Below are positions 3,343 to 44,890 of a stretch of DNA of 64,000 nt, one piece after another. The stretch spans positions 75,082,001-75,146,000 of the forward strand of contig CM097882.1 in NCBI GenBank assembly GCA_044892505.1, read 5' to 3'. Positions within the stretch are counted from its first letter, which is position 1; each line of letters opens with the position of its first letter. The notes under the pieces were generated by a model. That model had not been told where the DNA came from. It saw only the letters and a program-made list of their open reading frames with translations, and ran no database searches. A program made the translations under genes and the position numbers. The stretch comes from Schmidtea nova. Taxonomy: Eukaryota.

Positions 3343-3715
3343 TTCCAACAATTATATTTTCCAACGCATTTTCCAGCTGTATTGTCGAGACAAAGCAAAT
3401 TAATTTATTCCAGTTAATTTATTCCAACAATTATATTTTCCAACGCATTATCCAATTGTATTGTCGAGACAAAGCAAATTAATTTATTCCAGTTAATTTA
3501 TTCCAAACAATTATATTTTCCAACGTATCATCCAACCGTATTGTCGAGATAAAAGCAAATTAATTTATTCCAGTTAATTTATTCCAACAATTATATTTTC
3601 CAACGTATTATCCAACCGTATTGTCGAGACAAAAGCAAATTAATTTATTCCAGTTAATTTATTCTAGCGATTATATTTTCCAACGTATTACCCAACTGTA
3701 TTGTGGAGAAAAAAC
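3343..3715. repeat. LTR-internal tandem array, 79-80-bp unit, about 4.6 copies (also at about 8942-9315)
   Basis: ATTATATTTTCCAACG starts at 3351, 3430, 3510, 3590 and 3670. Confidence 0.95.
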
Positions 3716-3969
3716 AAAGTAACATTTATTTAATTCTTCGGGTTATTTTCATAATAAAACTTGTTTAGTTAAATTGGTTATTCTTAGTTTTTCTGATATT
3801 TTATATTACGTATTTGTAACTATTACTACACACAATCCACTACACAACAAACACCCCGAGTGTCCCAACAATTAATAGGTGACTCTCTCGGGATCTACAA
3901 GTCTTCTCCACATCACACGTACTACAAAATAAAACCCAATTAGAATAGTACATTAGAACTTATAATAAC

Positions 3970-3982
3970 TGGTGTCAGAAGT
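3970..3982 (+). promoter_or_regulatory. Primer-binding site, tRNA-Leu-type
   Basis: TGGTGTCAGAAGT directly after the LTR; complementary to the 3' end (..ACTTCTGACACCA) of animal tRNA-Leu. Confidence 0.8.
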
Positions 3983-4155
3983 CAACACATACACACACTC
4001 GACGAAATTTTTCTCAAATCACCTTTTCCTTTTAGAATAGTTAGTATAGAACTATAAAGGAAGGTGAGATCTTTTGGCTGAACACAGTAAGCCATATCCT
4101 TAAAACAAACTCGATTTTTTTTTGCATCAACAAACAACACTACACATAAAGACAA

Positions 4156-5214
4156 ATGGCATCGAACCAACAAAACCTAACAAACAATCCCCAAACACAC
4201 AACAACGAAACCATGTCCAATCAACAAGAGAATAACAGCTATTTTTACACCCCCGAAAACCACCACACCATAAATTCGATAATAAACCCCAAGGCAAACA
4301 TTCCAAACTACTTTACAGATGAGAACGGCACACCCCAAAAATGGCTAGAGTTCTCAAAACTAACATTGACACTGTCAGGAATCAAATCGACAAAAAGCTT
4401 ATGCTCCCACATAATAGCCGCTCTACCTAGCAATATTCTAAATGAAATTGCAGATCGAATCGACGAAATAGCGAATACCGACGACCCATTTAACTTACTA
4501 TACACAACCTTAGTAAATAGAAATAAGGTGAACAGGAGGGAAGTTTTGGAGTCTTGTCTAAAAGATATACAGCTTGGAAATGACAAACCAAGCGAATTTC
4601 TGCGAAATCTGAAAAGCAAACTAGAATTTTTGCAACCCAAAATCACAAGTGCGGGTCAAAATGATTTCGTGAAAGACCTATTCATGAGGGCAATGCCGCA
4701 AGAAATAAGACGCATCTTAGTGGCAAACGACTGCACAGATCTCGACAAGATAGCCGATATCGCGGACAAAATTAATGACGAAATATTCCCAACAGTGTGC
4801 AGAACATACCGAAAGCAACAACCGTGGGAAAACAAGCAAGAAAACCGTCAAGAACGAGATAACCCAAACAATGATACCAATCTACTGCTGAACTCGTTAA
4901 TAAAAAAAGTTGACGAGGTATTAACAGAAAACAAGAACCTCAGGAATGACTTACAAGAGACACAAGCGAGAGAAACGAAAAGAAACCAAATCAATCAAAA
5001 CAACCGTTCAGAACTAAACCCTAACTTTAACCGTTACCAAAATAACCATAACAACCCAACAGAGCAAAAACCAAATTTTAACCGGTATAATAACCCAAAC
5101 AACAACTACATACAAAACGAAAATTGGTGCTATTTTCACAATAGATTTGGAGACAAGGCGTACAAGTGCAACGCACCTTGCACTTTCAACAATAAAAAGC
5201 CGGAAAACATATAA
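4156..5214 (+). CDS. gag: Gag of CsRn1-like Gypsy element (352 aa)
   Basis: C-terminal CYFHNRFGDKAYKCNAPC is the Cx2Hx9Cx3C (CHCC) motif typical of CsRn1/Kabuki/Boudicca Gag. Confidence 0.9.
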   Translation: MASNQQNLTNNPQTHNNETMSNQQENNSYFYTPENHHTINSIINPKANIPNYFTDENGTPQKWLEFSKLTLTLSGIKSTKSLCSHIIAALPSNILNEIADRIDEIANTDDPFNLLYTTLVNRNKVNRREVLESCLKDIQLGNDKPSEFLRNLKSKLEFLQPKITSAGQNDFVKDLFMRAMPQEIRRILVANDCTDLDKIADIADKINDEIFPTVCRTYRKQQPWENKQENRQERDNPNNDTNLLLNSLIKKVDEVLTENKNLRNDLQETQARETKRNQINQNNRSELNPNFNRYQNNHNNPTEQKPNFNRYNNPNNNYIQNENWCYFHNRFGDKAYKCNAPCTFNNKKPENI

Positions 5215-5222
5215 AGTCACCA

Positions 5223-8200: not shown

Positions 8201-8357
8201 ACCATCCAACATCGACCACAACCAAAACCCTCCAGACAAAACCCCAACAAAACAAAAACACATCTCATTCGACACCAAAAACTCAATAAAACTATTCGAC
8301 AAGGACACGATAATCACACCCCTATACAAAAAACGATATAGCGAGTGCCTCAAATAA
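5223..8357 (+). pseudogene. pol: Pol (PR-RT-RNase H-IN) with two in-frame stops in integrase
   Basis: Motifs FLVDTGS, MPFGLKNAAATFQR, YLDD, YTDHKPL, H-H-C-C zinc finger. TGA at 7521 sits where Trp is expected (DRKTN*FESIP). Frame continues through SDQGRQF and NGKVERLH. TAG at 8112 follows EGPYKLLNL and the frame continues to INIRRLKP, ending TAA at 8355. The -1 frame is open from G_GAA_AAC (5202-5208), a candidate slippery site. Confidence 0.9.
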
Positions 8358-8567
8358 AGTTACATAAACATACACAAGCAAACACAGGCACAACATAGCT
8401 AAATGTACAGTTTTTAGTCTTTTGTAAATATGTAAATGTTATGGTTAAGACGTTATAAAAACAACAAAACAAATACAAAAACAAAACAAAACAAAACAAA
8501 ACAACAAAAACGAGTTGTCAACATGGTTAATCTGTTAATTTTTATTCTCTTGTTAACCTCCGGTTTT

Positions 8568-8578
8568 AAAGGGGGAAG
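8568..8578 (+). promoter_or_regulatory. Polypurine tract
   Basis: AAAGGGGGAAG immediately before the TGTGAATG start of the 3' LTR. Confidence 0.85.
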
Positions 8579-8581
8579 TTA

Positions 8582-9568
8582 TGTGAATGTCACATTTTAC
8601 TGTCATTTTTATATGTTTATTTGCTGTTGAGGATATGAGCGCCGTCATTGTTATGGACGGTGCCTTTGCGGTCACCTGGGCCCCCCCTTTTTTATTATGA
8701 CTGTTAATATTTATTTTATTATTGTTATTATTACAATTATCTTTATTTAAAATTTGAATTTGGCTTACTATAGCAATTTGCTATAGTAAGCCAAATTAAA
8801 AAAATCAGAAATAACGATTAATTTTTAAATTATGAATTAATACTTCAACGAGAAATATTTTGGCAAATTTTCATTGAAATATCTAGTACTAATTTGGGAA
8901 AAAATTACAAGAAAACCAATTATAATAAATCCAAGAAACTTTTCCAACAATTATATTTTCCAACGCATTTTCCAGCTGTATTGTCGAGAAAAAAGCAAAT
9001 TAATTTATTCCAGTTAATTTATTCCAACAATTATATTTTCCAACGCATTATCCAATTGTATTGTCGAGACAAAGCAAATTAATTTATTCCAGTTAATTTA
9101 TTCCAAACAATTATATTTTCCAACGTATCATCCAACCGTATTGTCGAGATAAAAGCAAATTAATTTATTCCAGTTAATTTATTCCAACAATTATATTTTC
9201 CAACGTATTATCCAACCGTATTGTCGAGACAAAAGCAAATTAATTTATTCCAGTTAATTTATATCAGCGATTATATTTTCCAACGTATTACCCAACTGTA
9301 TTGTGGAGAAAAAACAAAGTAACATTTATTTAATTCTTCGGGTTATTTTCATAATAAAACTTGTTTAGTTAAATTGGTTATTCTTAGTTTTTCTGATATT
9401 TTATATTACGTATTTGTAACTATTACTACACACAATCCACTACACAACAAACACCCCGAGTGTCCCAACAATTAATAGGTGACTCTCTCGGGATCTACAA
9501 GTCTTCTCCACATCACACGTACTACAAAATAAAACCCAATTAGAATAGTACATTAGAACTTATAATAA
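8582..9568 (+). repeat. 3' LTR (987 bp)
   Basis: Starts TG after the PPT; matches the 5' LTR to TATAATAA. Confidence 0.95.
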
Positions 9569-28523: not shown

Positions 28524-29679
28524 AAAAATCGGTTTCTAGGTCACAAATCACAATATTTAATTTTCAATTAATTTAATTGATTAATATTTTTATTTTGTTA
28601 TAAACAGCAGACGATGATTATAATAAACAAATAACATTATGGTCAATGAAATATATAATCTTTGGTTTGTCTTTATGAGCAAAGACATTAAATTATAAGA
28701 CGTCAATTCTCCCAACAATCTTGCAACAGATGATAAATCAGTTTGACTCTAAGATAAACTTACTAGTTTCCAGTTGAGAATTTGGTACTTGGATAAGGAA
28801 ATGTTAGACTATCGAATTTATGGACGGAGTGAACACAGTTTTTAACTTTTTATGTTATTTAAACGATTGAAATAAATAAATACAGCTTTGTGACTTGCAA
28901 AATTGGAAATTGAAATTATTGAATAAAGTATGTTTTATTCTTGAAAAGGCCCCACTTTTTGAAAAATGGTCTCAGGGGGAGCGGCTGCTCCCCCTGCTCC
29001 CNNNNNNNNNNNNNNNNNNNNNNNNNNNNNNNNNNNNNNNNNNNNNNNNNNNNNNNNNNNNNNNNNNNNNNNNNNNNNNNNNNNNNNNNNNNNNNNNNNN
29101 NNNNNNNNNNNNNNNNNNNNNNNNNNNNNNNNATCGCAAAAAACAAAATAATAAAAAATACATGAAATAAAATTTAACTTGTTGCTAATATTTAGCCGGA
29201 ACACAAACAAATCCTAAGCGTTTTTTAGCCAAGACACAAACTAACATTAAAAAAATTTTCGCCTGCGGTGCTTTAACTTTTTTGCCCGGGGCGCTGAAAA
29301 CCATAGGGCCGGTCCTGAGTGTAACTTATTCTTTTAAGAAATTCTTTTCTGTATAATAATGGTTTTTACTTTTTACAAGGTTCAACAGATAAAATAATTG
29401 TATATCCCTGTCAATTTAACCAATTAATCATGTTTATTCAGACTTATTTTTAATTTCAATATATATATATATATAAGATGAAAATTATCTACTTAAAAGA
29501 ATTTTTTTTTCTTTAATTTAATGTAAAATTTTGATATTATTTAACTATTCAAGTGTGACGATACAGCCGTAGATTTGGAGAAATTTTATCTAGTTCGAGT
29601 GGCTGTTTTTAGGTGCTATCCAAACAAATTTTAACTACCCTGTTGCAGGGAATACTTTTTAAATGGAATCTTATACTGG

Positions 29680-30034
29680 TGTTAGGATCAGGCCTTTGGC
29701 CTTAACGTTTTGAGGTTTTAATAATAGTAATAATAAATTACTAAAAATAATTAAAATAAAATAAAAATAATTTAAAAACAATTGTAAAACAAATATAGAA
29801 ATAAACATTTACTAAAAATAGAACCAGGCCTTTGTCTGGTAATTGCTAGAACACATTGGACTATAATCGGCAATTATTTATCAACAAAATCGACGTAGGT
29901 CGATTTAATTTTAGTATAAATAATATTGAATTTCAGTTCAGAGGGGACGACGAGACGAATAGAAAAACAACGTGTGAGAGAAAAATAATTAATTTAGAGT
30001 GAACATTGATCGATAACCTACCGCATCGAAAGTT

Positions 30035-30069
<35 letters not shown>

Positions 30070-30675
30070 GGAGAGAACTGTTAATATTTTTGGGAGAAAA
30101 AGAAAGAGCAAAGAAACAGAAAGGAGGAAAAGAATAACATTGTTTTGAAAAGAAGTAATTTTTTAAATTGGTCTAAAAACGTTTATAAAGTAGAGAGTGA
30201 AAGATAAATTTATCTTTTTGGGTTGAAAAATCATTTTAGTTGATATTAATTTTTAAAGCGAATACAAAGTAAAGAAGAATTACTTTAGTATTCTCTGGGT
30301 GCCCCAAAATCATTCCGCTTGCTTATCCACTCTTGTAAAAATATTTCTTAGCGATCGTTGTGTTACTGAGGTGCCAACGATTTCTTGCAGACTGTCACAA
30401 ACAGTAGGGATTAATTTAATCCGAGATCTTTATTGTTCTGTACATCGATAAATTTTGTGAATAATTTAATTATTGTTTTGTAAATTGGTTAAATAAAATT
30501 TGAAAAGAATAGTTAGTTTTCATTTACAGATTTTACCTGTCTTTAAAATACACGCAACCACATTAATTTTGTTATATTTATATTTATTCATTTATTTATA
30601 TATAACAACTTATATAGATATAAAATAGGAGTCAATTTGTGTTAAGATCAGCACCCCTATCTTTTGATCTTGACA
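29680..30675 (+). repeat. 5' LTR (996 bp)
   Basis: TGTTAGGATC...TCTTGACA, with internal (TA)n. Confidence 0.97.
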
Positions 30676-30678
30676 TTT

Positions 30679-30696
30679 TGGTGAGCCCGACGTGAT
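30679..30696 (+). promoter_or_regulatory. Primer-binding site, tRNA-Trp-type
   Basis: TGGTGAGCCCGACGTGAT; one mismatch to the complement of the animal tRNA-Trp 3' end (TGGTGACCCCGACGTGAT). Confidence 0.85.
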
Positions 30697-30809
30697 CATT
30701 TTTCGGGGGATATAAAAATATTATTTATCAGAAACAGTTTTCTTTTTAAATCATTGAGTTAAGAAATAGGAGAATAAATTTTAGACCAGGAAATAGAAAT
30801 CAACAGATA

Positions 30810-33800
30810 ATGGCAGACATAAATAATTTACAAAATGATAATAATTTACAAAATAATGTCAATAATAATAATGTGCCAGTAGCTCAACCACCAGCGGTAG
30901 ATTTTATGAGATACCCAACAATACCAATTAAACCATTTAGTGGGAACCCAGGAGAGTTTCCAGAATTTATGTCCGAATATTTTCAGTTAGCCAGAGCATT
31001 AGGTTTCCCTGAACCGGTAATGATTTTGAGATTACCTTTATATCTAAAAGGGATGGCGCGTGAAATATATAATGATGTTATTATAGCCGAGCATCCAGCT
31101 GAATGGAATGTATTACGGTTAGCGTTACAAAATAGAATATTACCGGGGGATGCAACCAGAGTGCTAAGACAACAATTTTATAATAGGAGACAGAATTTGG
31201 GTGAGCATGTTGGGGAATTTTCTTATCAAATATTAATGTTGGCAGAGAGAGCTTTTGGCGATAGGGCAGCTTGGAATGAGGCAACCAGAGCGTTAGTAAA
31301 AGACCAGTTTTGGTCAGGGTTATCGTCCGCAATGAGAAACGCACTCAGTTTACATATAGGGGATAATTTAGAGGAATTAACTCGTAAAGCTTGCTTAATT
31401 GAAAGTAGTATAGAGAAGTTAAATAATTTCGCAATTAGTACCAATAAGTCCGACATTGAGTGTTTTAACTGTCATAAAAAAGGCCACATATCTAAAGATT
31501 GTAGGAGTAGGAATAATCCCATAGGGGAAAAATCATGTACCAAATGCGGGAGAAACAATCATGTGGCGGCAAACTGCAGATTTTCGGACTTGAGTTGTGA
31601 GAAATGTAAACGCAAGGGACATGTAGCGTCAGTGTGTAAAGTTAGGTTTGGGGAGACTACCTCTAGTAATAATTTTAATAATAATAGAAATAGAAGCCCC
31701 GATAGAAATTTTCAGAATAATAATAATAATAAAAATTTTCAGAATAAGAGTAATAATTTTTCAAATAATAATATAAAGAGGGATGAAGTGAATTCGGGGG
31801 GTAAAATTAAATGTCATACGTGTGGAAAATTTGGTCATATTATGCGTTCATGTCCACAAAATCAGTTGAGTAATAACAATAACAGTAATAACAATAATAG
31901 TAATAGTCGACCGAAACAGACTACGTTTACAGTGAATTCTGATCACAAATTAACATATTTACAGCAGCTTGAATTAGAAATTCAAGAAGAGAGAAATAGG
32001 TTAGCCAGGCTAACGACAAATGAAATCGATGAATACGGCGAAGATGAAGCCGAGGTGTATATGTTGTCAGCCAGAAAAGGGCGCAACAAAGATAATAATA
32101 AACAGAGTAAATTAAGTAATGATATTGTAGCAGAACTTGAGGTATTGATGCTTCAAGAGAGTCCACAGGAGGACCAAGAGGAAAAGGCTATGGTCGTAGA
32201 ACCAGAGGCTTGTGAGGGTTTACCGGTTTCACCCAGGAAAAATCGAGTGGCTATGGTCACAGAACCAGAGGCCAACAGGGAAATAGAAGGTTTACCGGTT
32301 TCACCTAGTAAAAATCGTAAAGCCATGGACATAGATCCAGTGGCAAATAGAGGATATCCAAAAGAAGTTTTGGAAAAACGATGGGCTTCGGTCAGTGAGC
32401 CGGAAGTCTTAATAACCACATCATCCCTGAGAAATGATGGTGGCAGCAAACCGATAAAAGTTAGAGAGGCATCGAAAGAGGAAGGTAATCCCATCGATGA
32501 TTGTAAAATGCTATTACGTCATAGGAACGTATGGCAAAGAGAAATAGAACAGAGGCTAGAAAATATCAGATTAAACCCCATTAACGAGAATGAGGTAGAT
32601 AAAATAATGGATATCATATTAGAATTAAATAGAAATGATGAGTACCATCCGGTATTAAGAGAAATCCTGCGAAGCATAGGATTAAGTTGGAAGCAAAAAG
32701 GAGATCTAGAAGATTCCATAGTTTTTGTTGTCCTACCCAGAGGTTGTTTTTGTAGATATACAATAAACCCAAGAGAAAAAGTCGAAGCACTAGCCAAGAA
32801 AGTCGCTGAGGTAAAACCTCGATTGAAATGCGAACTATATTTGTTGGGAGAAAGATTATTGGAGGGAGAAGCCTTACTAGATTGTGGTATAATACCAGGA
32901 AAACAAATGATAGTAAAAGCAAAGTTTCACAAGGAAACTGTCACGATAGTGGACTCTGATAATGTCCTAACCATAACGGAAATGGAAATTGAACAATTAA
33001 ATCAAATATCAGCGGTACCACAAAGGTTGGGGACAGAGCTGATGCAAAACCCGAGGGACGGGGAAACCATTAAGATGATAATGGATTGGATATTGGAGTT
33101 ACGAATTCCAGTAGATACTCTTAGAGAGGTTATGCCATTGGTGGTGCCTTTATTGAAAGAAACATCACCATTCCAAACGCAAGCAAAGATGCTAGTAATC
33201 AAAAATGGGCATGCTATTAGACACCAGGATAATAGGCAAGGTCCAGTCATGTTAGATATCAGGATACCCAGGAGAGGACACCTGATACAACAATTTTCGT
33301 GTTTCCATAAAGTCAAGAAACTGAGGAAACGAGTGGCGACAATAGTAAAAGAGTCATTTATAATAATGATACACGGTTGTCAGGTTGATGACGACGAATA
33401 TTTAGTGGATGTAGGATGTTTTCCTCAAGAGGAAACTATAGTATTGATACTATTGGTCGAGCTTCCAGAGGACCAATGGGCAACACTGAGATTGCCAGAT
33501 GATGCTGAGTTAGAGAAGGATGAGATCCCTCCCGAGCAGCAACAAGCAGGTGAAGATACCCGCCTACAGGCAGGAGAAACAGTAGATTTAGACGCGGAAA
33601 TAGACAAATATTTACGGGAATTCGACAACACTGAGGATCAGTTGATCGAGATAATGCCATCTTTGGAAGATGAAAGTATAAGATTGAATCAAAAAGAAAC
33701 GAACATCGGAGCTAGTACGTCACAGGGAATTGGGCCATCAAGAGATAGGATGAGCCCGAAACTTGTTGTAAACAGGAGAAAGAAGGAGAGAAGGGGGAGA

Positions 33801-36800
33801 CCGAGAAAGAGTCAAATGAACCCGCCTCCAAGAGAACTCCTAAGGCCTACCACGATACAAAGCGTAAACAGGCAGGCTTTGGCAGGGATAGCCAGCCAAA
33901 TTGATAAAGGCACAAGAGATTTTAGTGCTAAAACGGAAACATGGAGGAGATTGAACCAAATATTAAGACTGATGAAGCCTGAGTGGCAAATCAAGAAAGA
34001 TAAAGCTATAAATGTTGAGAAAATTACAAACAAGATTAAACAAGCAATGAATAAGATTCCAGGAAGCACAACTGAACAGGAATTGTTCGAAGTAGCAGGA
34101 CAATTCATGCAAGAAGGGTTGACAAAAGGGAAAATGATAACAATTTTAGCACTAATGTTTAAAAACACCGTAATAATACTCAAGGATGATCCATCAGGAA
34201 TTCAAGTAGCCTTAGACAGGCTGACTGATATCATTGAAGTGAATTTTGAAACATGGATGACGGAACATAAGTTTTGGGAGACAAAAGAAACGAAAGGGAA
34301 ATATGAGATAAATGAGGAATTGTTGACAGAACATATCCCAAGTAATTCGCGGGGAACAGGTGGATTCACTAATTGGATGATGATGTTATTAGTAATGATG
34401 GGAATATTGAGACAGACAAACTCCTTAACAGCATACGACTGTAGCGAACCGATATTAGCACGGATTTACTCATTGGTAGACACAGTGGAATGCAAGGAAG
34501 CATATCCAGATAAAGTTGCAAAACGAGAGGATGCAGAATACCATGTTTATCAGCAAACAGAGTTTTATAGGACCAGGGTGAGGGAATGTCGAATACAGAG
34601 AGCGACATTTGAATATTACTGTGGATCACACAGTTATACAGCGTTTCTAGGAGCTAAGCTCATTCCAGTACCATTGATAATCCCACCAGAGGATTGCATA
34701 AATGCTTTTAGATCAAAAAATGTCAAAATAGATGACGAAGTGACAATCACAGCAGAGGAAGGAAAGAAGCTGGGTATAACGATTACCAGAGGAGGACCGA
34801 TAGCAGATGATGGTTCTTGCACCGGTAGAAAGAAATTAAGAGGTTCTAATATTGTGAGTTATGTAGTAACAGTTGAGGATTACACTGTAGAGCTAATAGA
34901 ATACGAAGGAACATTTGAAGTATCCACGGGTAAAATGATGTCCCATCCTGAATGTAATGTAAAGTTTGGGTATTGTAAAACCAGTACAGCGGTACTGACG
35001 TATCAATCAATGAGAGAATTTTGCGATTTGGGATACTTGAAAAAAGTAGTGTTTTCAAGACTTGATGGGAAAAGTTTTGCAGCACAAGAGTCACACCAAA
35101 GCGGGTGGGGAGATAAGATAAACCACAAGACGAAAAAAGAGAAAGTACCCGAGAAAAGCACAGCAGTAGTTTTAGTCGCAAAAGATCCTACCGATGCTAT
35201 CCGACTAGTTAGAAAGAAGCAGATAACAAAATGTGGTGTGCCAATATTCGAAACGAACTATAAAGGAATATTCTTAGCATACAAATATGTGCCGGCAGCA
35301 GAAACATTACATTTGTCAGATATAAAAATAGCGAAATATATCAATAATAAAATTGACTTTTTGTATCATGATTTACAGAAGCAACTATTAGACGTTTACC
35401 AGGAAGTGATCTTAAACGATTGTCGTTTAAACAGGGAAATAATACGAAATAGATTAGCAACATCTATTTCGAACCCTGATTTAGTAATGCCAATGTTAAC
35501 CGAGGAGGGAACATTTGGTAGAATTTTGGGAGAAGCAATTTATAGCTATCAATGCAAAGCGGTGGAGGTAGAAATAACCAAATACGATCAATGCACTTTA
35601 GAGCTTCCAGTAAAATATAAAGGAAAATTAAGATTTATGATACCAGTATCACATCAGTTGATGGGAGAAGAGGCAACTCCATTGAAGACAATTTGTAATC
35701 CGGCAATGTCACCACTATACAAAATTAACAATATATGGATTTCCTTACCAGACAGGAAACCACCTTCTAAACCAGTAGAAGTGTTGCAGGCTACTAAATT
35801 AGAAAACAAAATGGAGTTTCGACCATTAAATGAGATGTCAAAAGGGGGAGTATATACTCAAGAAGATATTGAGGAAGCGAGGAGAGCAATAGTGTTTCCT
35901 CAAATCAGAGATAGAGGAGTGACAGAGATAATAACTAGAATTTATCAATCATACGACGGAAAACCGGACTATAATTTATTATTTGGACCGGAACACTACA
36001 AGCAAGCCGCATCAAATGTGATACGGAGAATCTGGGGAAGATTCACAAGCTTCGGAATTTTTGTAGCAGGATGTTCAGGCATATACGCCATAGTGATGAT
36101 ATTGAAAATAATCATATCACAATTATTTTCCACATATAGTATCTTCAAGATCGGAGGATGGTCTTGGAAGTTGCTATTGGGAATGTGCCCACTTTGTGCA
36201 GATTTCGCAGTATTTCATCATCACAATAAAGAAATCAAGAAAATGAAAAGACAAAATGAAACAAAGCACGAAATAATAAAGTATGAATATAGTCATCGAG
36301 ACGATGACAATTCTGACGAGGGAGGTAACCTAGAGGGCGACAAGACCTCATATAACACCTCAACAAAACCAGACAACAAAAAACCGAATTTTCAAAATTT
36401 TGAAACTAGTACTTTTCAACAGTACCCTGTTAAAACAAAAAGACGAAAACAACAGGAATGGCCTGTGAAATATGTGTCTCCATATGAAACTAGGAGAAAG
36501 ATAATACCAGAAAAAGTAGAAGAGGAGATGTTGAGGCGTTTCGATTTTAGGACAAACGCAGGTATTTCAGCACCTCCTATACATTCAGAGTATCACATGA
36601 ATTTCGAGACAATGCCACCTTTGGGAACATCGATATTGGAAACGGTACCAAAATATCCATTTAGCACGTTAGAGAGGCTAAAGGAAAATTATCAAGATGA
36701 AATAAAATCGGAAGACGACAGAGATAGCGAGAATCAACAGAAATTCAGAGATAATATTCGAGGAATATCAACAGTGTTTATGGTAAATTCCAGCAAAAAG

Positions 36801-39800
36801 ACGCACAAGCCTACAATTAAATTAAAGGTTAATAGGCATACGGTTCATGCCATTATCGATTCAGGTTCAGACGTAACGCTGGTCGAAGCAAATTTATTAA
36901 ATGAAAAAGAATTACAAGCAATAATACAGACATTAACTATTACATCAGGAGCAAATGGTCAGCCAATCAATGTTATCGGGACATTAGATTGTGAGCTAAG
37001 GCTATGTGATCAGAAATTTAGACACGATATCAAGGTCACCAGACAGTGTATGGCAGAATGTATCGTGGGAATGGATATATTAAAAAAGTTAAAAGATATA
37101 GTATTTGATTGTGCAACAGGCGAATTGGTAAAAATGACGGGTAGAAAACGGAAAACATACAGTGTTGATGTAGTTTTTCTGGATAGATCAGTGAAAATAC
37201 CACCAAGAACCGAAACAGTTTGTTTTGTAGCAACACACCAAGAGGTCGAGGGAGATGTTATTTTCGAACCCAGTGAGCAGTTCATGAACAGATATAAAAC
37301 ACCTATGGTGCAGAATTTGGCAACAGTACGGGGAGGAAGAATCCCAATTAGATTAACGAATCTAGCGAATAAATCATTGAGGTTGTACCCAGAGACGAGA
37401 GTGGGTAAAGTGATACAACTTTCCAATCCTAGGAAAGAGTCGGAATCAACATTATCGGTGAGTGAGGAGGAACGAGATCCCGATATTGAATATTACGATG
37501 CACCTAGTTGTGATAGTAAAACGTTAACGAGAAAAGAGAATATTAGAGTTAATCAATTATTACGAAGATATGATCAAGTTTTTGCAAAGCACGAATATGA
37601 CTTAGGGCAAGTTAATATTTTAGAGCATGAGATTAAACTAACAGAGAGTAAACCAATAAAGATACGTCCGTATAGAATACCTCAAAGTATACAAGGGTCC
37701 GTGGATAAACAAATAAAATTAATGCAAAAGTATAATATAATCAGACCAAGTAAATCTCCATATTCTTCACCCTTGGTGGTTGTAGCTAAGAGAGATGGTT
37801 CCGTTAGATTGTGTAATGACTATAGGAAATTAAATGAACAAACTGTGAGTGATAATCACCCACTACCTTTGTTAGATTATATATATGATAAAATGAAAAA
37901 TTCGAAACTGTTTACTGTGATGGATGCACAGAAAGGATTCTATCAAATAAAAATGAGCGAAGACTCAATTCCTATGACAGGATTTTCGACTAGTAGTGAT
38001 CATTTTGAATATTTAGTAATGCCATTTGGACTAAAAGGAGCACCTCCAACTTTTCAGAGGGCTATGAATATTATGCTGATGGATGCACATCACGCAATGG
38101 TATATATTGACGACATTATCATTTTCTCGGAAGATTTAGATAAGCATTTAGAACATCTTGAGGATATTTTTAAACGGTTAATCATGGCAAACTTGAAAGT
38201 TAAACCAAGTAAATGCAAGTGGGCAGAATCGGAGGTGATTTACGTAGGGCATGTAATATCACACGATTGCGTAAGACCAGACCCGGCTAACACGGATAAA
38301 GTAAAGAATTTCCCACAACCAGTGAACGTGAAACAAATTAAAGGATTTCTAGGGTTGACGGGATATTATAGAAAATTTATTAGGAATTTCTCTGCAATCG
38401 CCTTTCCTTTGACCACGTTAGAAAAGAAAGGAGTAAAATTTTTATGGGGAGAGGATCAGCAGCAAGCATTTGATAAGTTGAAAGATGCATTATGCAAACC
38501 TCCAATCTTACGATTTCCAGATTTTAAAAGACAATTCATGGTGATGACAGATGCATGCACAAGAGGTATAGGTGCAGTATTGGGACAGAAAGATGAAATA
38601 GGTGATGAATACGCAGTAGCATACGCAAGTCGTGGGTTAAAGCCACACGAAAAAAGTTACGCAGTGATAGAATTAGAAGCACTGGCGTTAGTATTTGCAG
38701 TGGAAAAATTTAGTCATTACCTATGGGGCAGAAAGGTAATTTTCTATACCGATCATAGACCATTGCAATGGCTGTTAAAACATAGGGATGAAGCGTCAAA
38801 ATTGGTAAGATGGGCATTGAGATTACAGCCCTATAATATTGAGATTGTTTATCGAAAAGGAAAAGCCAATGGAAATGCAGACGCATTATCTCGGATGGAA
38901 CAAGAACCGGAGGTCGAAGATGTAAAGGAAGGAAGACTTGAAGGAACTATCTTCATGTTAACAAGAGAAGCAAATACGATAACGGACTTGGTAGAGGCGC
39001 AGAAAAGTGATGACGAGATCAACATGATCAGACAAGCAATCGAAGCAAAAGCTATACCAAGCGAATTTCAAAAATATTGGGAAAAACATAAGGATAAATT
39101 TATCCTAGAGGAAGGATTAATTAAATATGCGGAGACAAGAGATAATGTAATATTAGTGCCAAAGAAGTATAGAGAATCGTTGTTATTACAATATCACGAC
39201 GGAGCACTGGGAGGACATCTCTCAGCAAGACATACATTGTCTAGATTGAAAACAAAATATTTCTGGCCAGATATGAAAGAGGATGTAAAGAAGTGGTGCC
39301 AAACGTGTAAAATATGCATGACAAGGAGGAACACAGGTAAGAAACCTCATGTACCTCTAAAACCTATGCCAGTACCATCCTCGCCGATGGAGATGACTGC
39401 TATGGATGTACTGGGGCCGTTTAAAGAATCAATGATGGGAAATAAATTTATACTAGTCTTCTGTGACTACTTAACGAAGTGGCCGGAAGCATTTCCGATT
39501 CCAAACCATAAAGCCGACACAATTGCCAGAATATTTGTCGAGCAGATTGTATTTAGGTATAGAGTTCCATCAAAACTGCTTACCGACAGAGGGAAGGATT
39601 TTATGAGCAATTTGCTAAAAAGCATAAATGATTATTTTGGGATATTAAAGCTGAACACCTCACCATATCACCCACAAACGGATGGATTGGTGGATAGGTT
39701 CAATGGAACTTTGGCAAATATGTTATCATCATATGTGAACTCAGGACAGACGGATTGGGATGTGCATATACCGTCATGTTTGTTTGCTTATAGGAATGCA

Positions 39801-40328
39801 GTACATTCAGTTACAGGAGAAACACCTTTTTATCTAATGTACTTAAGGCATAGCAAGATGCCAGTGGATCTCATATTTTATCCAAAGGCTTCGCAAAATT
39901 GTGACGAAGGGAATTATTTATTTGAAATGAGAGAGAGAATGCAGGAAGCTTGGGAGAAAGCAGGCTTAAAAATTCGTTATAACCAGGAAACTATGAAAGA
40001 ATACCATGACCGTAAAGCAAAGGAGCATGGATTCTTAGTAGGAGATTATGTCATGTTAGAGGGACATTATAATAAAAAGGGTTTGTCCCCGAAACTTATG
40101 AGGAATTACAAAGGGCCAGATCAAATATTAAAGGCCACAGAGACAAATTTGATTTTACAATCAGTAGCGAACAAGAAAGCAGAACCAATCATGGTTCATG
40201 CAAACAGATGCAAAAAGATAGCTCCACCGGAAAAAGAAAAGCCAAAATCAGAAATAGATGAATTCGAAATAGATAAGAAATCAAAAAAGAAAACTTTGGA
40301 ATCATATAAAAGTATCCTAAAGGGTTAA
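30810..40328 (+). CDS. 3172-aa polyprotein: Gag-4xCCHC-2x(helical+Ubl)-AT-hook-Bcl-2-like-signal anchor-chuvirus-type glycoprotein-TM-PR-dUTPase-like-RT-RNase H-IN
   Basis: Uninterrupted ORF. Knuckles 31461-31853; Ubl 32718-32930 and 33246-33458; RRGRPRK 33789-33809; Bcl-2-like 33867-34280; signal 34374-34424; glycoprotein 34425-36215; IIDSGS (D at 36858); YIDD (38103); TDACTRG and YTDHRPL; integrase HHCC and D-D(35)-D. Confidence 0.95.
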   Translation: MADINNLQNDNNLQNNVNNNNVPVAQPPAVDFMRYPTIPIKPFSGNPGEFPEFMSEYFQLARALGFPEPVMILRLPLYLKGMAREIYNDVIIAEHPAEWNVLRLALQNRILPGDATRVLRQQFYNRRQNLGEHVGEFSYQILMLAERAFGDRAAWNEATRALVKDQFWSGLSSAMRNALSLHIGDNLEELTRKACLIESSIEKLNNFAISTNKSDIECFNCHKKGHISKDCRSRNNPIGEKSCTKCGRNNHVAANCRFSDLSCEKCKRKGHVASVCKVRFGETTSSNNFNNNRNRSPDRNFQNNNNNKNFQNKSNNFSNNNIKRDEVNSGGKIKCHTCGKFGHIMRSCPQNQLSNNNNSNNNNSNSRPKQTTFTVNSDHKLTYLQQLELEIQEERNRLARLTTNEIDEYGEDEAEVYMLSARKGRNKDNNKQSKLSNDIVAELEVLMLQESPQEDQEEKAMVVEPEACEGLPVSPRKNRVAMVTEPEANREIEGLPVSPSKNRKAMDIDPVANRGYPKEVLEKRWASVSEPEVLITTSSLRNDGGSKPIKVREASKEEGNPIDDCKMLLRHRNVWQREIEQRLENIRLNPINENEVDKIMDIILELNRNDEYHPVLREILRSIGLSWKQKGDLEDSIVFVVLPRGCFCRYTINPREKVEALAKKVAEVKPRLKCELYLLGERLLEGEALLDCGIIPGKQMIVKAKFHKETVTIVDSDNVLTITEMEIEQLNQISAVPQRLGTELMQNPRDGETIKMIMDWILELRIPVDTLREVMPLVVPLLKETSPFQTQAKMLVIKNGHAIRHQDNRQGPVMLDIRIPRRGHLIQQFSCFHKVKKLRKRVATIVKESFIIMIHGCQVDDDEYLVDVGCFPQEETIVLILLVELPEDQWATLRLPDDAELEKDEIPPEQQQAGEDTRLQAGETVDLDAEIDKYLREFDNTEDQLIEIMPSLEDESIRLNQKETNIGASTSQGIGPSRDRMSPKLVVNRRKKERRGRPRKSQMNPPPRELLRPTTIQSVNRQALAGIASQIDKGTRDFSAKTETWRRLNQILRLMKPEWQIKKDKAINVEKITNKIKQAMNKIPGSTTEQELFEVAGQFMQEGLTKGKMITILALMFKNTVIILKDDPSGIQVALDRLTDIIEVNFETWMTEHKFWETKETKGKYEINEELLTEHIPSNSRGTGGFTNWMMMLLVMMGILRQTNSLTAYDCSEPILARIYSLVDTVECKEAYPDKVAKREDAEYHVYQQTEFYRTRVRECRIQRATFEYYCGSHSYTAFLGAKLIPVPLIIPPEDCINAFRSKNVKIDDEVTITAEEGKKLGITITRGGPIADDGSCTGRKKLRGSNIVSYVVTVEDYTVELIEYEGTFEVSTGKMMSHPECNVKFGYCKTSTAVLTYQSMREFCDLGYLKKVVFSRLDGKSFAAQESHQSGWGDKINHKTKKEKVPEKSTAVVLVAKDPTDAIRLVRKKQITKCGVPIFETNYKGIFLAYKYVPAAETLHLSDIKIAKYINNKIDFLYHDLQKQLLDVYQEVILNDCRLNREIIRNRLATSISNPDLVMPMLTEEGTFGRILGEAIYSYQCKAVEVEITKYDQCTLELPVKYKGKLRFMIPVSHQLMGEEATPLKTICNPAMSPLYKINNIWISLPDRKPPSKPVEVLQATKLENKMEFRPLNEMSKGGVYTQEDIEEARRAIVFPQIRDRGVTEIITRIYQSYDGKPDYNLLFGPEHYKQAASNVIRRIWGRFTSFGIFVAGCSGIYAIVMILKIIISQLFSTYSIFKIGGWSWKLLLGMCPLCADFAVFHHHNKEIKKMKRQNETKHEIIKYEYSHRDDDNSDEGGNLEGDKTSYNTSTKPDNKKPNFQNFETSTFQQYPVKTKRRKQQEWPVKYVSPYETRRKIIPEKVEEEMLRRFDFRTNAGISAPPIHSEYHMNFETMPPLGTSILETVPKYPFSTLERLKENYQDEIKSEDDRDSENQQKFRDNIRGISTVFMVNSSKKTHKPTIKLKVNRHTVHAIIDSGSDVTLVEANLLNEKELQAIIQTLTITSGANGQPINVIGTLDCELRLCDQKFRHDIKVTRQCMAECIVGMDILKKLKDIVFDCATGELVKMTGRKRKTYSVDVVFLDRSVKIPPRTETVCFVATHQEVEGDVIFEPSEQFMNRYKTPMVQNLATVRGGRIPIRLTNLANKSLRLYPETRVGKVIQLSNPRKESESTLSVSEEERDPDIEYYDAPSCDSKTLTRKENIRVNQLLRRYDQVFAKHEYDLGQVNILEHEIKLTESKPIKIRPYRIPQSIQGSVDKQIKLMQKYNIIRPSKSPYSSPLVVVAKRDGSVRLCNDYRKLNEQTVSDNHPLPLLDYIYDKMKNSKLFTVMDAQKGFYQIKMSEDSIPMTGFSTSSDHFEYLVMPFGLKGAPPTFQRAMNIMLMDAHHAMVYIDDIIIFSEDLDKHLEHLEDIFKRLIMANLKVKPSKCKWAESEVIYVGHVISHDCVRPDPANTDKVKNFPQPVNVKQIKGFLGLTGYYRKFIRNFSAIAFPLTTLEKKGVKFLWGEDQQQAFDKLKDALCKPPILRFPDFKRQFMVMTDACTRGIGAVLGQKDEIGDEYAVAYASRGLKPHEKSYAVIELEALALVFAVEKFSHYLWGRKVIFYTDHRPLQWLLKHRDEASKLVRWALRLQPYNIEIVYRKGKANGNADALSRMEQEPEVEDVKEGRLEGTIFMLTREANTITDLVEAQKSDDEINMIRQAIEAKAIPSEFQKYWEKHKDKFILEEGLIKYAETRDNVILVPKKYRESLLLQYHDGALGGHLSARHTLSRLKTKYFWPDMKEDVKKWCQTCKICMTRRNTGKKPHVPLKPMPVPSSPMEMTAMDVLGPFKESMMGNKFILVFCDYLTKWPEAFPIPNHKADTIARIFVEQIVFRYRVPSKLLTDRGKDFMSNLLKSINDYFGILKLNTSPYHPQTDGLVDRFNGTLANMLSSYVNSGQTDWDVHIPSCLFAYRNAVHSVTGETPFYLMYLRHSKMPVDLIFYPKASQNCDEGNYLFEMRERMQEAWEKAGLKIRYNQETMKEYHDRKAKEHGFLVGDYVMLEGHYNKKGLSPKLMRNYKGPDQILKATETNLILQSVANKKAEPIMVHANRCKKIAPPEKEKPKSEIDEFEIDKKSKKKTLESYKSILKG

Positions 40329-41318
40329 CCAGAACGATACCCTTTACGATCTAGACAAATTCCCAAAACGGTTACATTTTTAACTGTAATCAGTTGTGTT
40401 ATGATGTTGGGTCAAGCATTTGAGAAGTTTGTACCAAAGTCAAGTCAACATCCTGATATCGAATATCATCGAACGGATAGGGCATTCAGATTTTATTTAA
40501 AAAATATAGAATGGCATCGTTACGATTTATATTTGACAACCCCTGAGAAAGGAATATCTTTTCACTTAAACAAATGGGATAGAGTGAAAGAAATTGGAGG
40601 ACTAATGCCAAACACCGGATATCTTTTAGAAATAAAGACATTCTTTGCGGATCCAGACGTTTTTGCAGACGGAGGAAACTGTGATGACAAAGCGGGATGG
40701 ATTTTGAAAACAGCAATATTCACGGAAAAAGTAGAGATTTCTTATCAGGAACAAACGGTAAAATTCACGCATGAATACTGGATGAAAAATAACAGAATTT
40801 TGCTTATATATATATTAGAAAATATGAAAAGAGTTAAAAGATTGGTACTCAACCAATCATATCAAGTTCGGAAATGGACAATACAACCAAAAATGAATAC
40901 AAAAGCCAATATAACATACTTGGAGTTTTCGGAGACGGGGAAAATTGGTTGGTACACAGTACATCATGAACTAGTAGATCTGGTACCACGTGAATGGAAC
41001 AAACCAACTAGCAAGAAAGGGAGAGCTAGATTAGTGAATATTCCTGGGTGTAAAGGAATAAGCGAAACAGATTTGAGAAACCTAAGAAAGGTAGTGAGTG
41101 AAATGCAACCTCGCGTAAATAAACTTCTAACTAATTGCAGTTGCCAAAGAGAAACTAAGGGGATATTACAAGTTAAAATGCCAAATTGGCTATTTGTAGT
41201 TATAATAGGGGGAGTAACCAGTATGGTTTTAGCATTAGTTATAGCAACCCTTTGGATGTTTCGTTTAACTTTAAGGGACAAGCGATATTGGGAAAACTAT
41301 TATGAAACTGAGGTGTAA
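40329..41318 (+). CDS. ORF2: type I membrane glycoprotein with FN3-like ectodomain, in frame with pol after a single TAA (track start 40401)
   Basis: Signal-like VTFLTVISCVMMLGQA; IGGLMPNTGYLLEIKTF (FN3 GLxPxTxY motif); sequons NQS, NIT, NCS; TM WLFVVIIGGVTSMVLALVIATLWMF; tail ends YYETEV. Confidence 0.75.
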   Translation, partial: PERYPLRSRQIPKTVTFLTVISCVMMLGQAFEKFVPKSSQHPDIEYHRTDRAFRFYLKNIEWHRYDLYLTTPEKGISFHLNKWDRVKEIGGLMPNTGYLLEIKTFFADPDVFADGGNCDDKAGWILKTAIFTEKVEISYQEQTVKFTHEYWMKNNRILLIYILENMKRVKRLVLNQSYQVRKWTIQPKMNTKANITYLEFSETGKIGWYTVHHELVDLVPREWNKPTSKKGRARLVNIPGCKGISETDLRNLRKVVSEMQPRVNKLLTNCSCQRETKGILQVKMPNWLFVVIIGGVTSMVLALVIATLWMFRLTLRDKRYWENYYETEV

Positions 41319-41529
41319 GGGGAAAGTCTCACCAGAGAATAGGTAGTGTAAATATATATATATATAAATATTTATTTGATATTAGTATTTATAATTATGT
41401 AGATAAATAATGTGGGCTCAAAGGAGCAACTGTAAAATCAAACATCAGCGTATGTTGACTGGGTTTACCCTGGGAGGGTCTATCACGAAAGTGATAAAAG
41501 CTGTTAATTATTTTATTTTTAGATAAAAT

Positions 41530-42834
41530 ATGAACCTTAACGAAGAATCAAGAGTCCAGACAAAATCAAACAGAACACACCCAATGATTTCCTACAGTTC
41601 CCAAATGAAAAGCAATATAGAGGTATACAGTACATACAAAGAGGAGTATGTCTACAGGTTCATAGGAACCACGGTGGCGGCAAAGATGAACCATCTTACG
41701 TCAAATTATTGGTATTATCCAAGGAGAGTGGATATCCCAAACGATTACAAATTCCCTGGTGGACCCCAAAGGCAAATGATGGTGACGGTTGTAAACAACC
41801 AAGGAAGAATCAAAATAGCAGATTTATGTAGAGAGTATGGCTCATGTCCAAAGATAGAGAATATATGGCTCCATGCGATTAATCGAGCGATTACCGTGTT
41901 TATGGCTGGGATGGAACTACCAGTGGAACTAGGCAAGCATTGCACATTGGAGGTGTATCATGCCGATGGTAGGGAACGTAATATAATGTTACAAGCATCC
42001 GCAGCAAATACTATTATCGCGGTGGAAATATTGGATTTTAAGAAACCTTACCAGTTTGTGAATCGGAATGAGCCTACATGGATTTACAACGTTAACGAAG
42101 AAGATCTCCAGCAAAGTAGATCGTTCGTAAGAAGGAACATGACAAAAGAAGAAGAAGACGAAGCCACAGTTTTTGTATCAGCCGGATTTGCCAAGTCGAG
42201 GATAAATTTGAAAGAAACACTTATCCAGATAGCAATCCTGGATATAAGAGGAAATAATTTATTAAGTGCGGTAGTAACTCCCAAGGATCCAGTTAAGCAC
42301 TACCAGACGCACCAATATAAATTAAAAGAACAAGAAATCCGTGGAAATTTCGACGAGGATGATTGCCACCATTTAATACGAAAGATTTGCGACAAGAAAA
42401 TAGTTGTGGGCATTCTAGTAAAGGATTTACTCAAGGTAGCCAATCTACCAGTGCAGAGACTATTAGGCATCCGTGATTTATCTGCGAATAAATTATTAGA
42501 ATCCCGGGGAGTCCCTAAGATTCATGGGTATTATAGATTGGGATTTCTGACGAAGACATTTCTGCGTACAGTGCCGGGAGAACCAAGAAATTTGGTGGTT
42601 ACCAATGAGGCATTAGCAATTAGGGCTATATATCTACATATTAGAAATGAATGGCTAGACCATATTAGTGTGCCTCAGGTAGAAATTAGGACAACAACTA
42701 CGGTAGAGATAGTTGAACAGGAAGCTTTACAAAAGCAGACGTTACCCGAATTGCCATCTACATCGAAGCAACCCCATTTAAAGAGAAGGGAGAACATACC
42801 AGAAGATCTTCCACCACCCCAATTATATCGATAG
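41530..42834 (+). CDS. ORF3 (434 aa): unknown N-terminal half plus REX4/ISG20-like DEDDh exonuclease fold lacking catalytic acids
   Basis: 42163-42654 aligns by eye to REX4-family motifs: IAILDIRGNNLLSAVVTPKDPVKHYQT, KIVVG..DLLKV, IRDLS, EALAIRAIY..W. Confidence 0.75.
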   Translation: MNLNEESRVQTKSNRTHPMISYSSQMKSNIEVYSTYKEEYVYRFIGTTVAAKMNHLTSNYWYYPRRVDIPNDYKFPGGPQRQMMVTVVNNQGRIKIADLCREYGSCPKIENIWLHAINRAITVFMAGMELPVELGKHCTLEVYHADGRERNIMLQASAANTIIAVEILDFKKPYQFVNRNEPTWIYNVNEEDLQQSRSFVRRNMTKEEEDEATVFVSAGFAKSRINLKETLIQIAILDIRGNNLLSAVVTPKDPVKHYQTHQYKLKEQEIRGNFDEDDCHHLIRKICDKKIVVGILVKDLLKVANLPVQRLLGIRDLSANKLLESRGVPKIHGYYRLGFLTKTFLRTVPGEPRNLVVTNEALAIRAIYLHIRNEWLDHISVPQVEIRTTTTVEIVEQEALQKQTLPELPSTSKQPHLKRRENIPEDLPPPQLYR

Positions 42835-42965
42835 GTGAAGAAGATGAATATGAAACATGTACCAGCGAAGCAGAACAACTGCAACCATCTACCAGCGCTG
42901 CCTATCAGCGAAAGGGTGAGGCAAAAATCACGCCTAGTAAAGACAAACGGGAGACAGGCAAAGTC

Positions 42966-43598
42966 GTGGGAATCCTTAAGAAGATCATACCGGTAAAAAG
43001 AGACAAATCAAAGATGAAGTTGAAAAAGATAGTCAAACAACCAATCGAGAAGAATAAAGAATTACCCCAAAAGGAAAAAGAGAAAACAATAGCCGCTAAG
43101 AAAGTTTTTGCCGAAGGTGATGAGGATATAATGGAAGTCGATTTCCAACCTCCAATAAAGGAATTACAGGAGGAAATAAGGGTAAAGACAGAACCCGAAG
43201 TCCGGCAAAAGATGTTAAAAATCGCCAAAGAAAATATCATAAAGAAGCCTGTGTCAGTGGATGTTGATGGATTTGAACCAATGTGGTATAAACGCCCAGA
43301 CCCTTTATGGAAACCTAGAGCCAAAGACTATGACTGCCAAGCAGTCACAAGAATGGCCATAAATAACAACGAAAGATACGATGTATATGATGTGGATGGA
43401 ATACCTTATGTGGCATCATCGCTTATATTAACAAGCGCATTAGATGATAAAGTTATGGCAGTAAGCTTTGAGTTAGACACTCTTAAGAAAAGAAAACAAA
43501 TACTAAAAAGGCAGTACGCAATTGCTAACGGTTATAGCACAACAGAGGTACATCTGTACAAAGTTCCCGAGCCAGATCCCGATGACCTGGATGTCTAA
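42966..43598 (+). CDS. ORF4, orphan basic/acidic protein (first ATG 43014; frame open from 42717)
   Basis: Intact 210-codon frame inside the LTRs; no recognisable domain. Confidence 0.55.
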   Translation: MGILKKIIPVKRDKSKMKLKKIVKQPIEKNKELPQKEKEKTIAAKKVFAEGDEDIMEVDFQPPIKELQEEIRVKTEPEVRQKMLKIAKENIIKKPVSVDVDGFEPMWYKRPDPLWKPRAKDYDCQAVTRMAINNNERYDVYDVDGIPYVASSLILTSALDDKVMAVSFELDTLKKRKQILKRQYAIANGYSTTEVHLYKVPEPDPDDLDV

Positions 43599-43867
43599 TC
43601 AACACAAGTTGCCTATCAACAACGTCGCAAAGCAAGTAGTGTAGCTATAAAAGACTTGAATTTTTTTTCGTGACTTACCTAACAGTTTATATTTGATCTT
43701 GACTTTTAAAGTATCCTTTGACGTTTATTATATCCTTGTGGTGTACAAATATAAAAATGACTTTCAATCATTTATTAATTTATTTTATGATTTATTTTTA
43801 TGTGTTATGTAAATGCTGTTTGTGACAAGCAAAGTGTCTTATCTTGTTTTCGAGACGAAAATCTTTT

Positions 43868-43878
43868 AGGGGGTAAGA
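43868..43878 (+). promoter_or_regulatory. Polypurine tract
   Basis: AGGGGGTAAGA just before the 3' LTR. Confidence 0.75.
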
Positions 43879-43880
43879 CT

Positions 43881-44235
43881 TGTTAGGATCAGGCCTTTGG
43901 CCTTAACGTTTTGAGGTTTTAATAATAGTAATAATAAATTACTAAAAATAATTAAAATAAAATAAAAATAATTTAAAAACAATTGTAAAACAAATATAGA
44001 AATAAACATTTACTAAAAATAGAACCAGGCCTTTGTCTGGTAATTGCTAGAACACATTGGACTATAATCGGCAATTATTTATCAACAAAATCGACGTAGG
44101 TCGATTTAATTTTAGTATAAATAATATTGAATTTCAGTTCAGAGGGGACGACGAGACGAATAGAAAAACAACGTGTGAGAGAAAAATAATTAATTTAGAG
44201 TGAACATTGATCGATAACCTACCGCATCGAAAGTT

Positions 44236-44284
<49 letters not shown>

Positions 44285-44890
44285 GGAGAGAACTGTTAAT
44301 ATTTTTGGGAGAAAAAGAAAGAGCAAAGAAACAGAAAGGAGGAAAAGAATAACATTGTTTTGAAAAGAAGTAATTTTTTAAATTGGTCTAAAAACGTTTA
44401 TAAAGTAGAGAGTGAAAGATAAATTTATCTTTTTGGGTTGAAAAATCATTTTAGTTGATATTAATTTTTAAAGCGAATACAAAGTAAAGAAGAATTACTT
44501 TAGTATTCTCTGGGTGCCCCAAAATCATTCCGCTTGCTTATCCACTCTTGTAAAAATATTTCTTAGCGATCGTTGTGTTACTGAGGTGCCAACGATTTCT
44601 TGCAGACTGTCACAAACAGTAGGGATTAATTTAATCCGAGATCTTTATTGTTCTGTACATCGATAAATTTTGTGAATAATTTAATTATTGTTTTGTAAAT
44701 TGGTTAAATAAAATTTGAAAAGAATAGTTAGTTTTCATTTACAGATTTTACCTGTCTTTAAAATACACGCAACCACATTAATTTTGTTATATTTATATTT
44801 ATTCATTTATTTATATATAACAACTTATATAGATATAAAATAGGAGTCAATTTGTGTTAAGATCAGCACCCCCATCTTTTGATCTTGACA
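43881..44890 (+). repeat. 3' LTR (1010 bp)
   Basis: Same as the 5' LTR apart from a (TA)n tract 14 nt longer and one T>C near the end. Confidence 0.97.

Follow-up and report, generated by a model that had tools for sequence, protein, structure and literature searches.

A doubled four-helix and ubiquitin-like module ahead of a Bcl-2-like domain in a Burro-like LTR element of Schmidtea nova

We describe a doubled two-domain module in a 64,000-nucleotide stretch of the Schmidtea nova genome (GenBank assembly GCA_044892505.1, contig CM097882.1, positions 75,082,001 to 75,146,000; hereafter the window). The module is enclosed by a long terminal repeat (LTR) element of 15,211 bp (29680-44890), in a single frame of 3,172 amino acids (aa) (30810..40328) that encodes Gag, module A, module B, a Bcl-2-like domain, the envelope glycoprotein (Env), protease (PR), reverse transcriptase (RT), RNase H (RH) and integrase (IN), in this order; the LTRs and coding features of the element are on the forward strand. 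Each module is a unit of about 155 aa in which four helices are followed by a ubiquitin-like domain (UBL). A UBL at this place is already known in the planarian Burro elements, where the section on Burro in PMC6431247 gives a Ubi2/SUMO-like domain between MATH and BCL2. We give an even chance to the interpretation that the two tandem modules, which lack Gly-Gly, are protein-docking units of an accessory Bcl-2-like anti-death protein that is cut out between Gag and Env.

Two copies of a helical and ubiquitin-like unit

Module A consists of a four-helix bundle (aa 562-627; 32493..32690) and a beta-grasp UBL (aa 635-708; 32712..32933), which is the faster-evolving copy. A linker with a predicted beta-hairpin and helix (aa 711-734; 32940..33011) leads to module B, in which the four-helix bundle (aa 736-805; 33015..33224) carries conserved K793, G800 and R804, and the UBL (aa 811-886; 33240..33467) carries the conserved motif DDDEYL.D.G..P. 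A previous sequence-only reading had picked out two 71-aa segments here as a tandem duplication, and both were found where it had placed them. Compared alone, these segments are 24% identical (E 0.002), with Pfam E values of 0.12-0.17. A phmmer search of the PDB with the single window sequence and two single-sequence homologue searches gave 0 matches, a fold prediction from the single sequence (local confidence score, pLDDT, 38) was discarded, and feature scores of 0.84-0.90 to ubiquitin and Rad60-SLD clusters were taken as leads only.

Relatives were gathered from the genome and from a protein library. The library gave 212 proteins at E <=0.001; the 150 listed were mostly ubiquitin repeats, and 22 were taken, chosen mainly for covering both halves of the module. 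When a profile of 15 modules from other lineages was run on the window polyprotein, exactly two significant matches were found, at aa 560-708 (E 2.7e-15) and aa 737-880 (E 3e-28), and the helical halves matched separately, with 0 of 1000 shuffles scoring as high. It is thus confirmed by profile comparison that the duplicated unit includes the helical part as well as the UBL. The shared helical motif on which the sequence-only reading had relied has an offset of 158 residues, which pairs helix 3 of module A with helix 2 of module B and is not the homologous alignment; the homologous offset is 175-176 residues, and the duplication itself stands. The helix bundle and the UBL occur together in every complete homologue examined, whether single or doubled.

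The beta-grasp fold proposed for both repeats was supported by modelling and profile matches. The structure model is confident, a fold search places the UBLs near those of ISG15, SUMO, Dsk2 and Rad23, and a 33-row module profile matched mouse ISG15 in the PDB with E 3.8e-8 and single UBLs with E 1e-5 to 1e-4, all 60 of the 60 matches listed being ubiquitin-family chains or UBL-bearing proteins. In Pfam, PF00240 was matched by 6 of the 33 modules and PF11976 by 6 of 33 (best E 1.1e-5), the window copies not being among the significant ones. Foldseek matches to PI3K p110 (rmsd about 19) were rejected, as they amount to two beta-grasp domains with a spacer.

No family was found for the helical half by PDB profile search, in which the top-scoring chains were designed repeats or unrelated proteins (E 0.002-0.02), or by Pfam, and its absence from the fold-search lists, which were filled by UBL matches, is uninformative. 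The modelled helix lengths and spacing, as well as the small size of the bundle, resemble the TFIIS-N and LEDGF-IBD (TND) domains (PF08711, PF11467), and a pairwise profile comparison with host TND sequences gave E 0.005 in the expected register. There is also an AT-hook-like basic motif, RGRPRK (aa 995-1000; 33792..33809), which was found in 10 of 20 polyproteins or fragments scanned and reached E 0.027 with Pfam AT_hook in relative P0006. Together, the helices and this motif might tether the integrase to chromatin by a protein that the element itself encodes, or might serve as a decoy for transcription factors that bind TND domains. We regard this as improbable, because the sequence tests were no better than controls: the hhalign probability was 6.9%, and 2.8% and 0.5% once more TND sequences were included; block-shuffled controls scored as high in 6 of 100 cases, and an unrelated Bcl-2 control was similar. 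Furthermore, no TND chain was among 38 PDB matches at E <=10, neither PF08711 nor PF11467 was among the 25 of 54 Pfam families listed, and a membrane anchor would bar the fragment from the nucleus unless it were cut again. A broader proposal, that the four-helix-plus-UBL unit is an undescribed family, doubled once or twice, that marks a lineage of GAG-ENV-POL endogenous viruses, with a LEDGF-like tether or decoy of TND-like helices and AT-hook fused to a viral Bcl-2 whose tail anchor is the Env signal peptide, appears decidedly unlikely as a whole. About 28 PF08711 (TFIIS-N) matches, spaced about 1.2 kb apart, form a tandem array elsewhere in the genome (G000:C1:216191207-216252340).

Missing ubiquitin features, conserved residues and selection

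A conjugatable modifier would end in Gly-Gly after its last strand. No Gly-Gly is present in aa 546-1183 or at the end of the aligned UBLs, which supports, at the level of sequence, the earlier view that these are integral and not conjugatable domains. The same result removes the basis for the suggested analogy with pestivirus-type processing signals, and we find it hardly credible that host deubiquitinases cut at these UBLs. Ubiquitin-bearing polyproteins of bovine viral diarrhoea virus (BVDV) were among the fold matches, and they share with the window polyprotein a ubiquitin-fold domain inside a viral polyprotein, but these matches reflect the shared fold alone. The BVDV insertions are host ubiquitins in almost intact form, with a terminal Gly-Gly at which cleavage takes place, whereas the UBLs here are old and diverged and have no such tail.

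A different high-copy element of this genome (L067:2540-7639; G000:C2, near 35.117 Mb), with terminal repeats of about 900 bp and well over 100 further matches, encodes a 1,699-aa chimera of a calmodulin-like start, tandem repeats, an HSP70 fragment (E 1.9e-79), a near-canonical ubiquitin ending in LRLRGG, a BEL/Pao-type Gag (DUF1759) and a protease. Within the 10 kb there are only two frames of at least 200 aa, and there is no RT match. If this ubiquitin can be cleaved from the Gag that follows it, the chimera would be the real pestivirus-like case.

The 33 modules, which include close relatives, were aligned with a near-canonical ubiquitin from another element of the same genome; the register of the last strand is uncertain in this alignment. 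Of the ubiquitin residues compared, L8 is kept in 0/33, I44 in 2/33, H68 in 0/33, K48 in 0/33 and K63 in 0/33. An L8-I44-H68-V70-like patch is thus not kept in residue identity, with position 44 being hydrophobic in 20/33 modules (Tyr in A, Met in B) and charged or polar in 13/33. These counts bear on the possibility that the UBLs mimic ubiquitin as decoys for proteasome receptors, UIM/UBA readers or deubiquitinases. A true beta-grasp fold, the frequent hydrophobic residue at position 44 and the avidity that tandem UBLs could gain are in keeping with mimicry; the lost ubiquitin residues, a spacer of 100 residues between the UBLs, unlike diubiquitin, and conservation on the opposite face argue against it, with the uncertain register limiting the comparison, and we consider it unlikely. 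Likewise, engagement of proteasome or ESCRT receptors in the manner of ubiquitin, as the sequence-only reading had suggested, is made less likely by these counts, without being excluded. Compared with the ISG15 C-terminal domain, SUMO, Hub1, Dsk2/Rad23 and the OASL tandem UBL, the modules are 10-20% identical, lack Gly-Gly, do not conserve the residues of the L8/I44/H68 patch, and have an N-terminal four-helix partner and an acidic DDDEY loop.

Conservation is concentrated on the 51-58 loop, opposite position 44, and on helix 4. Among 26 B-type and single copies the best-kept residues are K793, G800 and R804 at the end of helix 4 and, in the UBL, K834-V835, R839, G856, D860-D862, E863, Y864, L865, D867, G869 and P872; surface-type residues are kept across lineages that are about 20-25% identical (R804 in 24/26, E863 in 22/26, G869 in 25/26). 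A DDEYL..D.G codon pattern was matched 878 times in the genome, compared to 0 times for a control. The linkers adjoining the modules diverge far more than the modules do. These results speak against the module being a mere folding aid or spacer of such a long protein, or the decaying remains of a sequence once captured from the host. What favours this reading is that the module changes at several times the rate of Gag, Env and RT, and that one pair of families gives a ratio of nonsynonymous to synonymous substitution (dN/dS) of 0.82 for UBL A; we hold it to be quite improbable.

Substitution rates between diverged families show the module to be under purifying selection: dN was below dS for all modules, and dN was higher in the modules than in Gag, Env and RT. 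For L047 relative to L088, dN/dS was 0.40 for helix A, 0.82 for UBL A, 0.36 for helix B and 0.10 for UBL B; for L062 relative to L083, it was 0.06 for the helices and 0.16 for the UBL, compared to 0.02 for RT. Copy A changes faster than copy B: between the window and its sister family, the helical and UBL halves of A are 27 and 26% identical and those of B are 60 and 53% identical.

Module number follows the length of the frame, with two modules in frames of about 3,400-3,550 codons and one in frames of about 3,000-3,070 codons. Among 18 database proteins, P0002 and P0006 have two full modules, P0003 has one and a partial second, P0009 has the end of an upstream one, and the remainder, several of which are fragments, have one module each; three long relatives also bear the PF24664 glycoprotein. 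One single-module relative, P0027, has an Env followed or preceded by four protease-like domains in succession, and its 2,296 aa contain no RT. In the module tree, no A copy is grouped with the B copy from the element that carries both, so the doubling is older than these families. The A label requires 2 changes on this tree, and an approximately unbiased test rejects a single A clade (p 0.025, with a very long branch included), while in the Env tree the two-module elements form two supported groups, and a single-module element is placed between these with weak support. From these trees, the module may have been doubled once or twice.

Predicted release together with a Bcl-2-like domain

Downstream of module B, at about aa 1015-1160 (33852..34289), is a Bcl-2-like domain for which a 7-row sister-family profile matched Bcl-xL with E 8e-8, the homology covering the BH1-BH2 region (profile positions 65-137), and PF00452 was matched in sister families. 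A short hydrophobic stretch (aa 1189-1205; 34374..34424) precedes the conserved AYDC start of Env, and we read it as the probable Env signal peptide and a possible Bcl-2 tail anchor. Upstream of the modules, VYMLS (aa 416-420; 32055..32069) is a candidate site for the element protease and the last of three such motifs before module A. Motifs of this VYMLS/TFTVN type occur 5 times in the window polyprotein compared to 0.65 expected (0/500 shuffles), at the junction of capsid (CA) and nucleocapsid (NC), twice after NC, before PR, and between RH and IN, with matching places in L035 and P0066; none was found in aa 421-1988. The linker ahead of module A also contains a local repeat of 72 bp (24 aa) at 32214-32350, and in the sister family this linker holds another repeat, in three copies, of which two fit the protease-site-like motif.

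We propose that the element protease would cut after the nucleocapsid (about aa 418), freeing CA and NC ahead of the module, and that signal peptidase would cut where Env begins (about aa 1205). These cuts would leave a cytosolic protein of about 790 aa, consisting of module A, module B, the AT-hook-like motif and the Bcl-2-like domain, and would be held on a membrane by the signal helix; Bcl-2 proteins are usually membrane-tied. In each module the helix bundle and UBL would act jointly, by way of the acidic DDDEY loop and the basic residues conserved where helix 4 ends, and not through a surface like the I44 patch of ubiquitin. The protein might recruit or block host factors of cell death or of the ubiquitin system such that the producing cell survives, with module B retaining the ancestral partner and module A, freed by the duplication, drifting faster or binding a second partner.

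If the module instead stayed on Gag, it could serve in assembly or budding much as p6 does, bringing ESCRT or membrane-trafficking factors to where Env inserts. The module is C-terminal to the zinc knuckles in all full elements examined, and it has so far been found in elements that also bear the fusion glycoprotein, as such a role would have it. However, two site-like motifs split the module from NC in the lineage of the window, a distant copy is present in an element without a Gag frame, and no MIT or other ESCRT family was among the Pfam or PDB sequence matches; this explanation, too, seems to us unlikely.

The element without a Gag frame is a 25-kb LTR element (L108:4456 to L086:9539; G000:C1:119234955-119260038) with 4.1-kb LTRs that are 99.98% identical; among its frames of at least 150 aa, none was found for Gag, RT or integrase. 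It contains a single distant helical-UBL module with a protease and ankyrin repeats, and further frames for RING-zinc finger-MATH (TRAF-like), BIR-RING (IAP-like) and coiled-coil proteins. The pairing of a distant module with TRAF/MATH and BIR-RING frames in an RT-less element supports the docking and anti-death interpretation. Across the genome, 150 BIR matches were scored, most in frames of about 399 aa.

Several observations weigh against a docking module released with a Bcl-2-like protein. The global score (pTM) of the module model is just 0.56, and position 44 of the UBL is still hydrophobic in the majority of modules noted above. The distant module of the 25-kb element scores just E 0.0008 within a small set. 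The cleavage motif was defined by eye from these same sequences, so that its test is partly circular; it misses at least the PR/RT junction and is not at equivalent places in 5 of 8 other loci scanned. The predicted signal helix is short, and a 19-residue hydropathy scan at 1.7 did not pick it out. In several of the pairs compared, dS is near saturation, and the domains have just about 70 codons. Finally, relatives P0027, P0078 and P0133 have the module and no Pfam Bcl-2 match, and the Bcl-2-like domain of the window also fails Pfam; because of such relatives, the link between module and Bcl-2 may not be obligatory.

A one-line published annotation (Ubi2/SUMO-like) becomes here a defined module with conserved residues, predicted to belong to a stand-alone Bcl-2-like accessory protein and present in families that are compact, were active very recently and number hundreds of copies. 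The module is small and can be expressed, which suits it to a search for the host partner, and the conserved B with the drifting A makes a natural pair for the divergence that follows duplication in a retroelement accessory gene.

The host element and its published relatives

The 5′ LTR (29680..30675; 996 bp, TG...CA) directly follows a target-site copy, CTGG (29676-29679), and the 3′ LTR (43881..44890; 1,010 bp) is followed by CTGG. Aligned with each other, the LTRs show 1 mismatch, and a TA run accounts for 14 gap columns; because they differ only in this way and 4-bp target copies flank them, the insertion is very recent. In the same genome, 121 of 1,477 candidates were scored, 90 of them at 79-100% identity and 31 at 42-44%. 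The primer-binding-site-like sequence TGGTGAGCCCGACGTGAT (30679..30696) is common to four sister families. The Gag capsid region and four CCHC-type zinc knuckles occupy aa 1-350 (30810..31859; zf-CCHC 3.7e-10), and Retrotrans_gag was matched in sister family L047. The fusion glycoprotein (34425..36299) matches PF24664 (Monjiviricetes_fusion) with E 2.7e-81 and has its transmembrane region at aa 1745-1780. At 36804..39869, Pfam identified protease, reverse transcriptase, RNase H and integrase. With LTRs, a primer-binding site, the order PR-RT-RH-IN and env between gag and pol, this is a Ty3/gypsy element of the GAG-ENV-POL type.

The published description of Burro/GYPSM1 (PMC6431247) resembles this element in having one long frame with Gag and CCHC knuckles, a UBL ahead of a BCL2-like domain, then PR-RT-RH-IN, and an in-frame env between BCL2 and protease that matches mononegavirus fusion glycoproteins. 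It differs in size, the element here being 15.2 kb with 1-kb LTRs and 3,172 aa (about 3,550 in sisters) compared to more than 30 kb and 4,873-5,140 aa for Burro. MATH/TRAF, BIR and ankyrin domains are absent from the polyprotein and the three downstream frames by Pfam at E up to 1. The UBL is doubled here, with a four-helix partner for each copy, and neither feature is in the published Burro section. At the place of the dUTPase-like domain of Burro, between PR and RT, there is a region of about 130 aa, for which PF00692 was not among the Pfam matches. We therefore use the name Burro-like, because the layout is a compact version of Burro and the giant size and the MATH, BIR and ankyrin domains are lacking, Burro being compared by its description. 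The sequence-only reading had mentioned neither the in-frame Bcl-2-like domain and fusion glycoprotein, nor the likely release of the module from mature Gag, nor the UBL of Burro.

Burro cargo was suggested to meddle with apoptosis and ubiquitination (PMC6431247), Burro1 IAP protects stem cells according to a 2026 study cited in PMC13465017, and BURRO1 is silenced by PIWI (PMC8532177); the parts of PMC11410931 and PMC13238120 consulted have nothing on the domains of these elements. Burro-like elements are among the few LTR retroelements with host-type apoptosis and ubiquitin cargo, and for one such cargo a role in the survival of stem cells is reported. The errantiviruses of GAG-ENV-POL type that have an HSV/gB-type Env, known from Nematoda, Bryozoa and Platyhelminthes (PMC13524379), share the Gag-Env-Pol order, a class III-type glycoprotein and many near-identical intact copies, whereas in the main text of that paper the terms ubiquitin, SUMO, Bcl, apoptosis and Burro do not occur, and no cargo is described for the region from Gag to Env. 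In the article texts searched, we found no account of the conserved helical partner, of the doubling and the asymmetric divergence of its copies, or of a release together with Bcl-2 as predicted here; a description of the module may already be given in Grohme 2018 or Lee 2026 (Dev Cell).

Three frames lie downstream of the polyprotein (40329-41318, 41527-42834 and 42717-43598; span 40329..43598), with no significant Pfam match. Frames of many sister copies have about 3,550 codons, and the window copy stops earlier. A tail of about 330 aa, corresponding to 40326-41318, is continuous with the polyprotein in a sister copy and has two hydrophobic stretches and no Pfam match; it looks like a second membrane protein fused behind integrase. 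The 435-aa frame at 41527-42834 has no Pfam or PDB match, is homologous to a frame in sister locus L084:3405-5312 (E 4.6e-10), and bears a by-eye likeness to the DEDD-type exonuclease fold, as a candidate only.

The window also contains a second, smaller Ty3/gypsy element at about 3003-9371, unrelated to the module, with a Gag-like frame at 4150-5214 and pol at 5196-8114; its terminal repeats are 5.6 kb apart and contain 80-bp tandem units.
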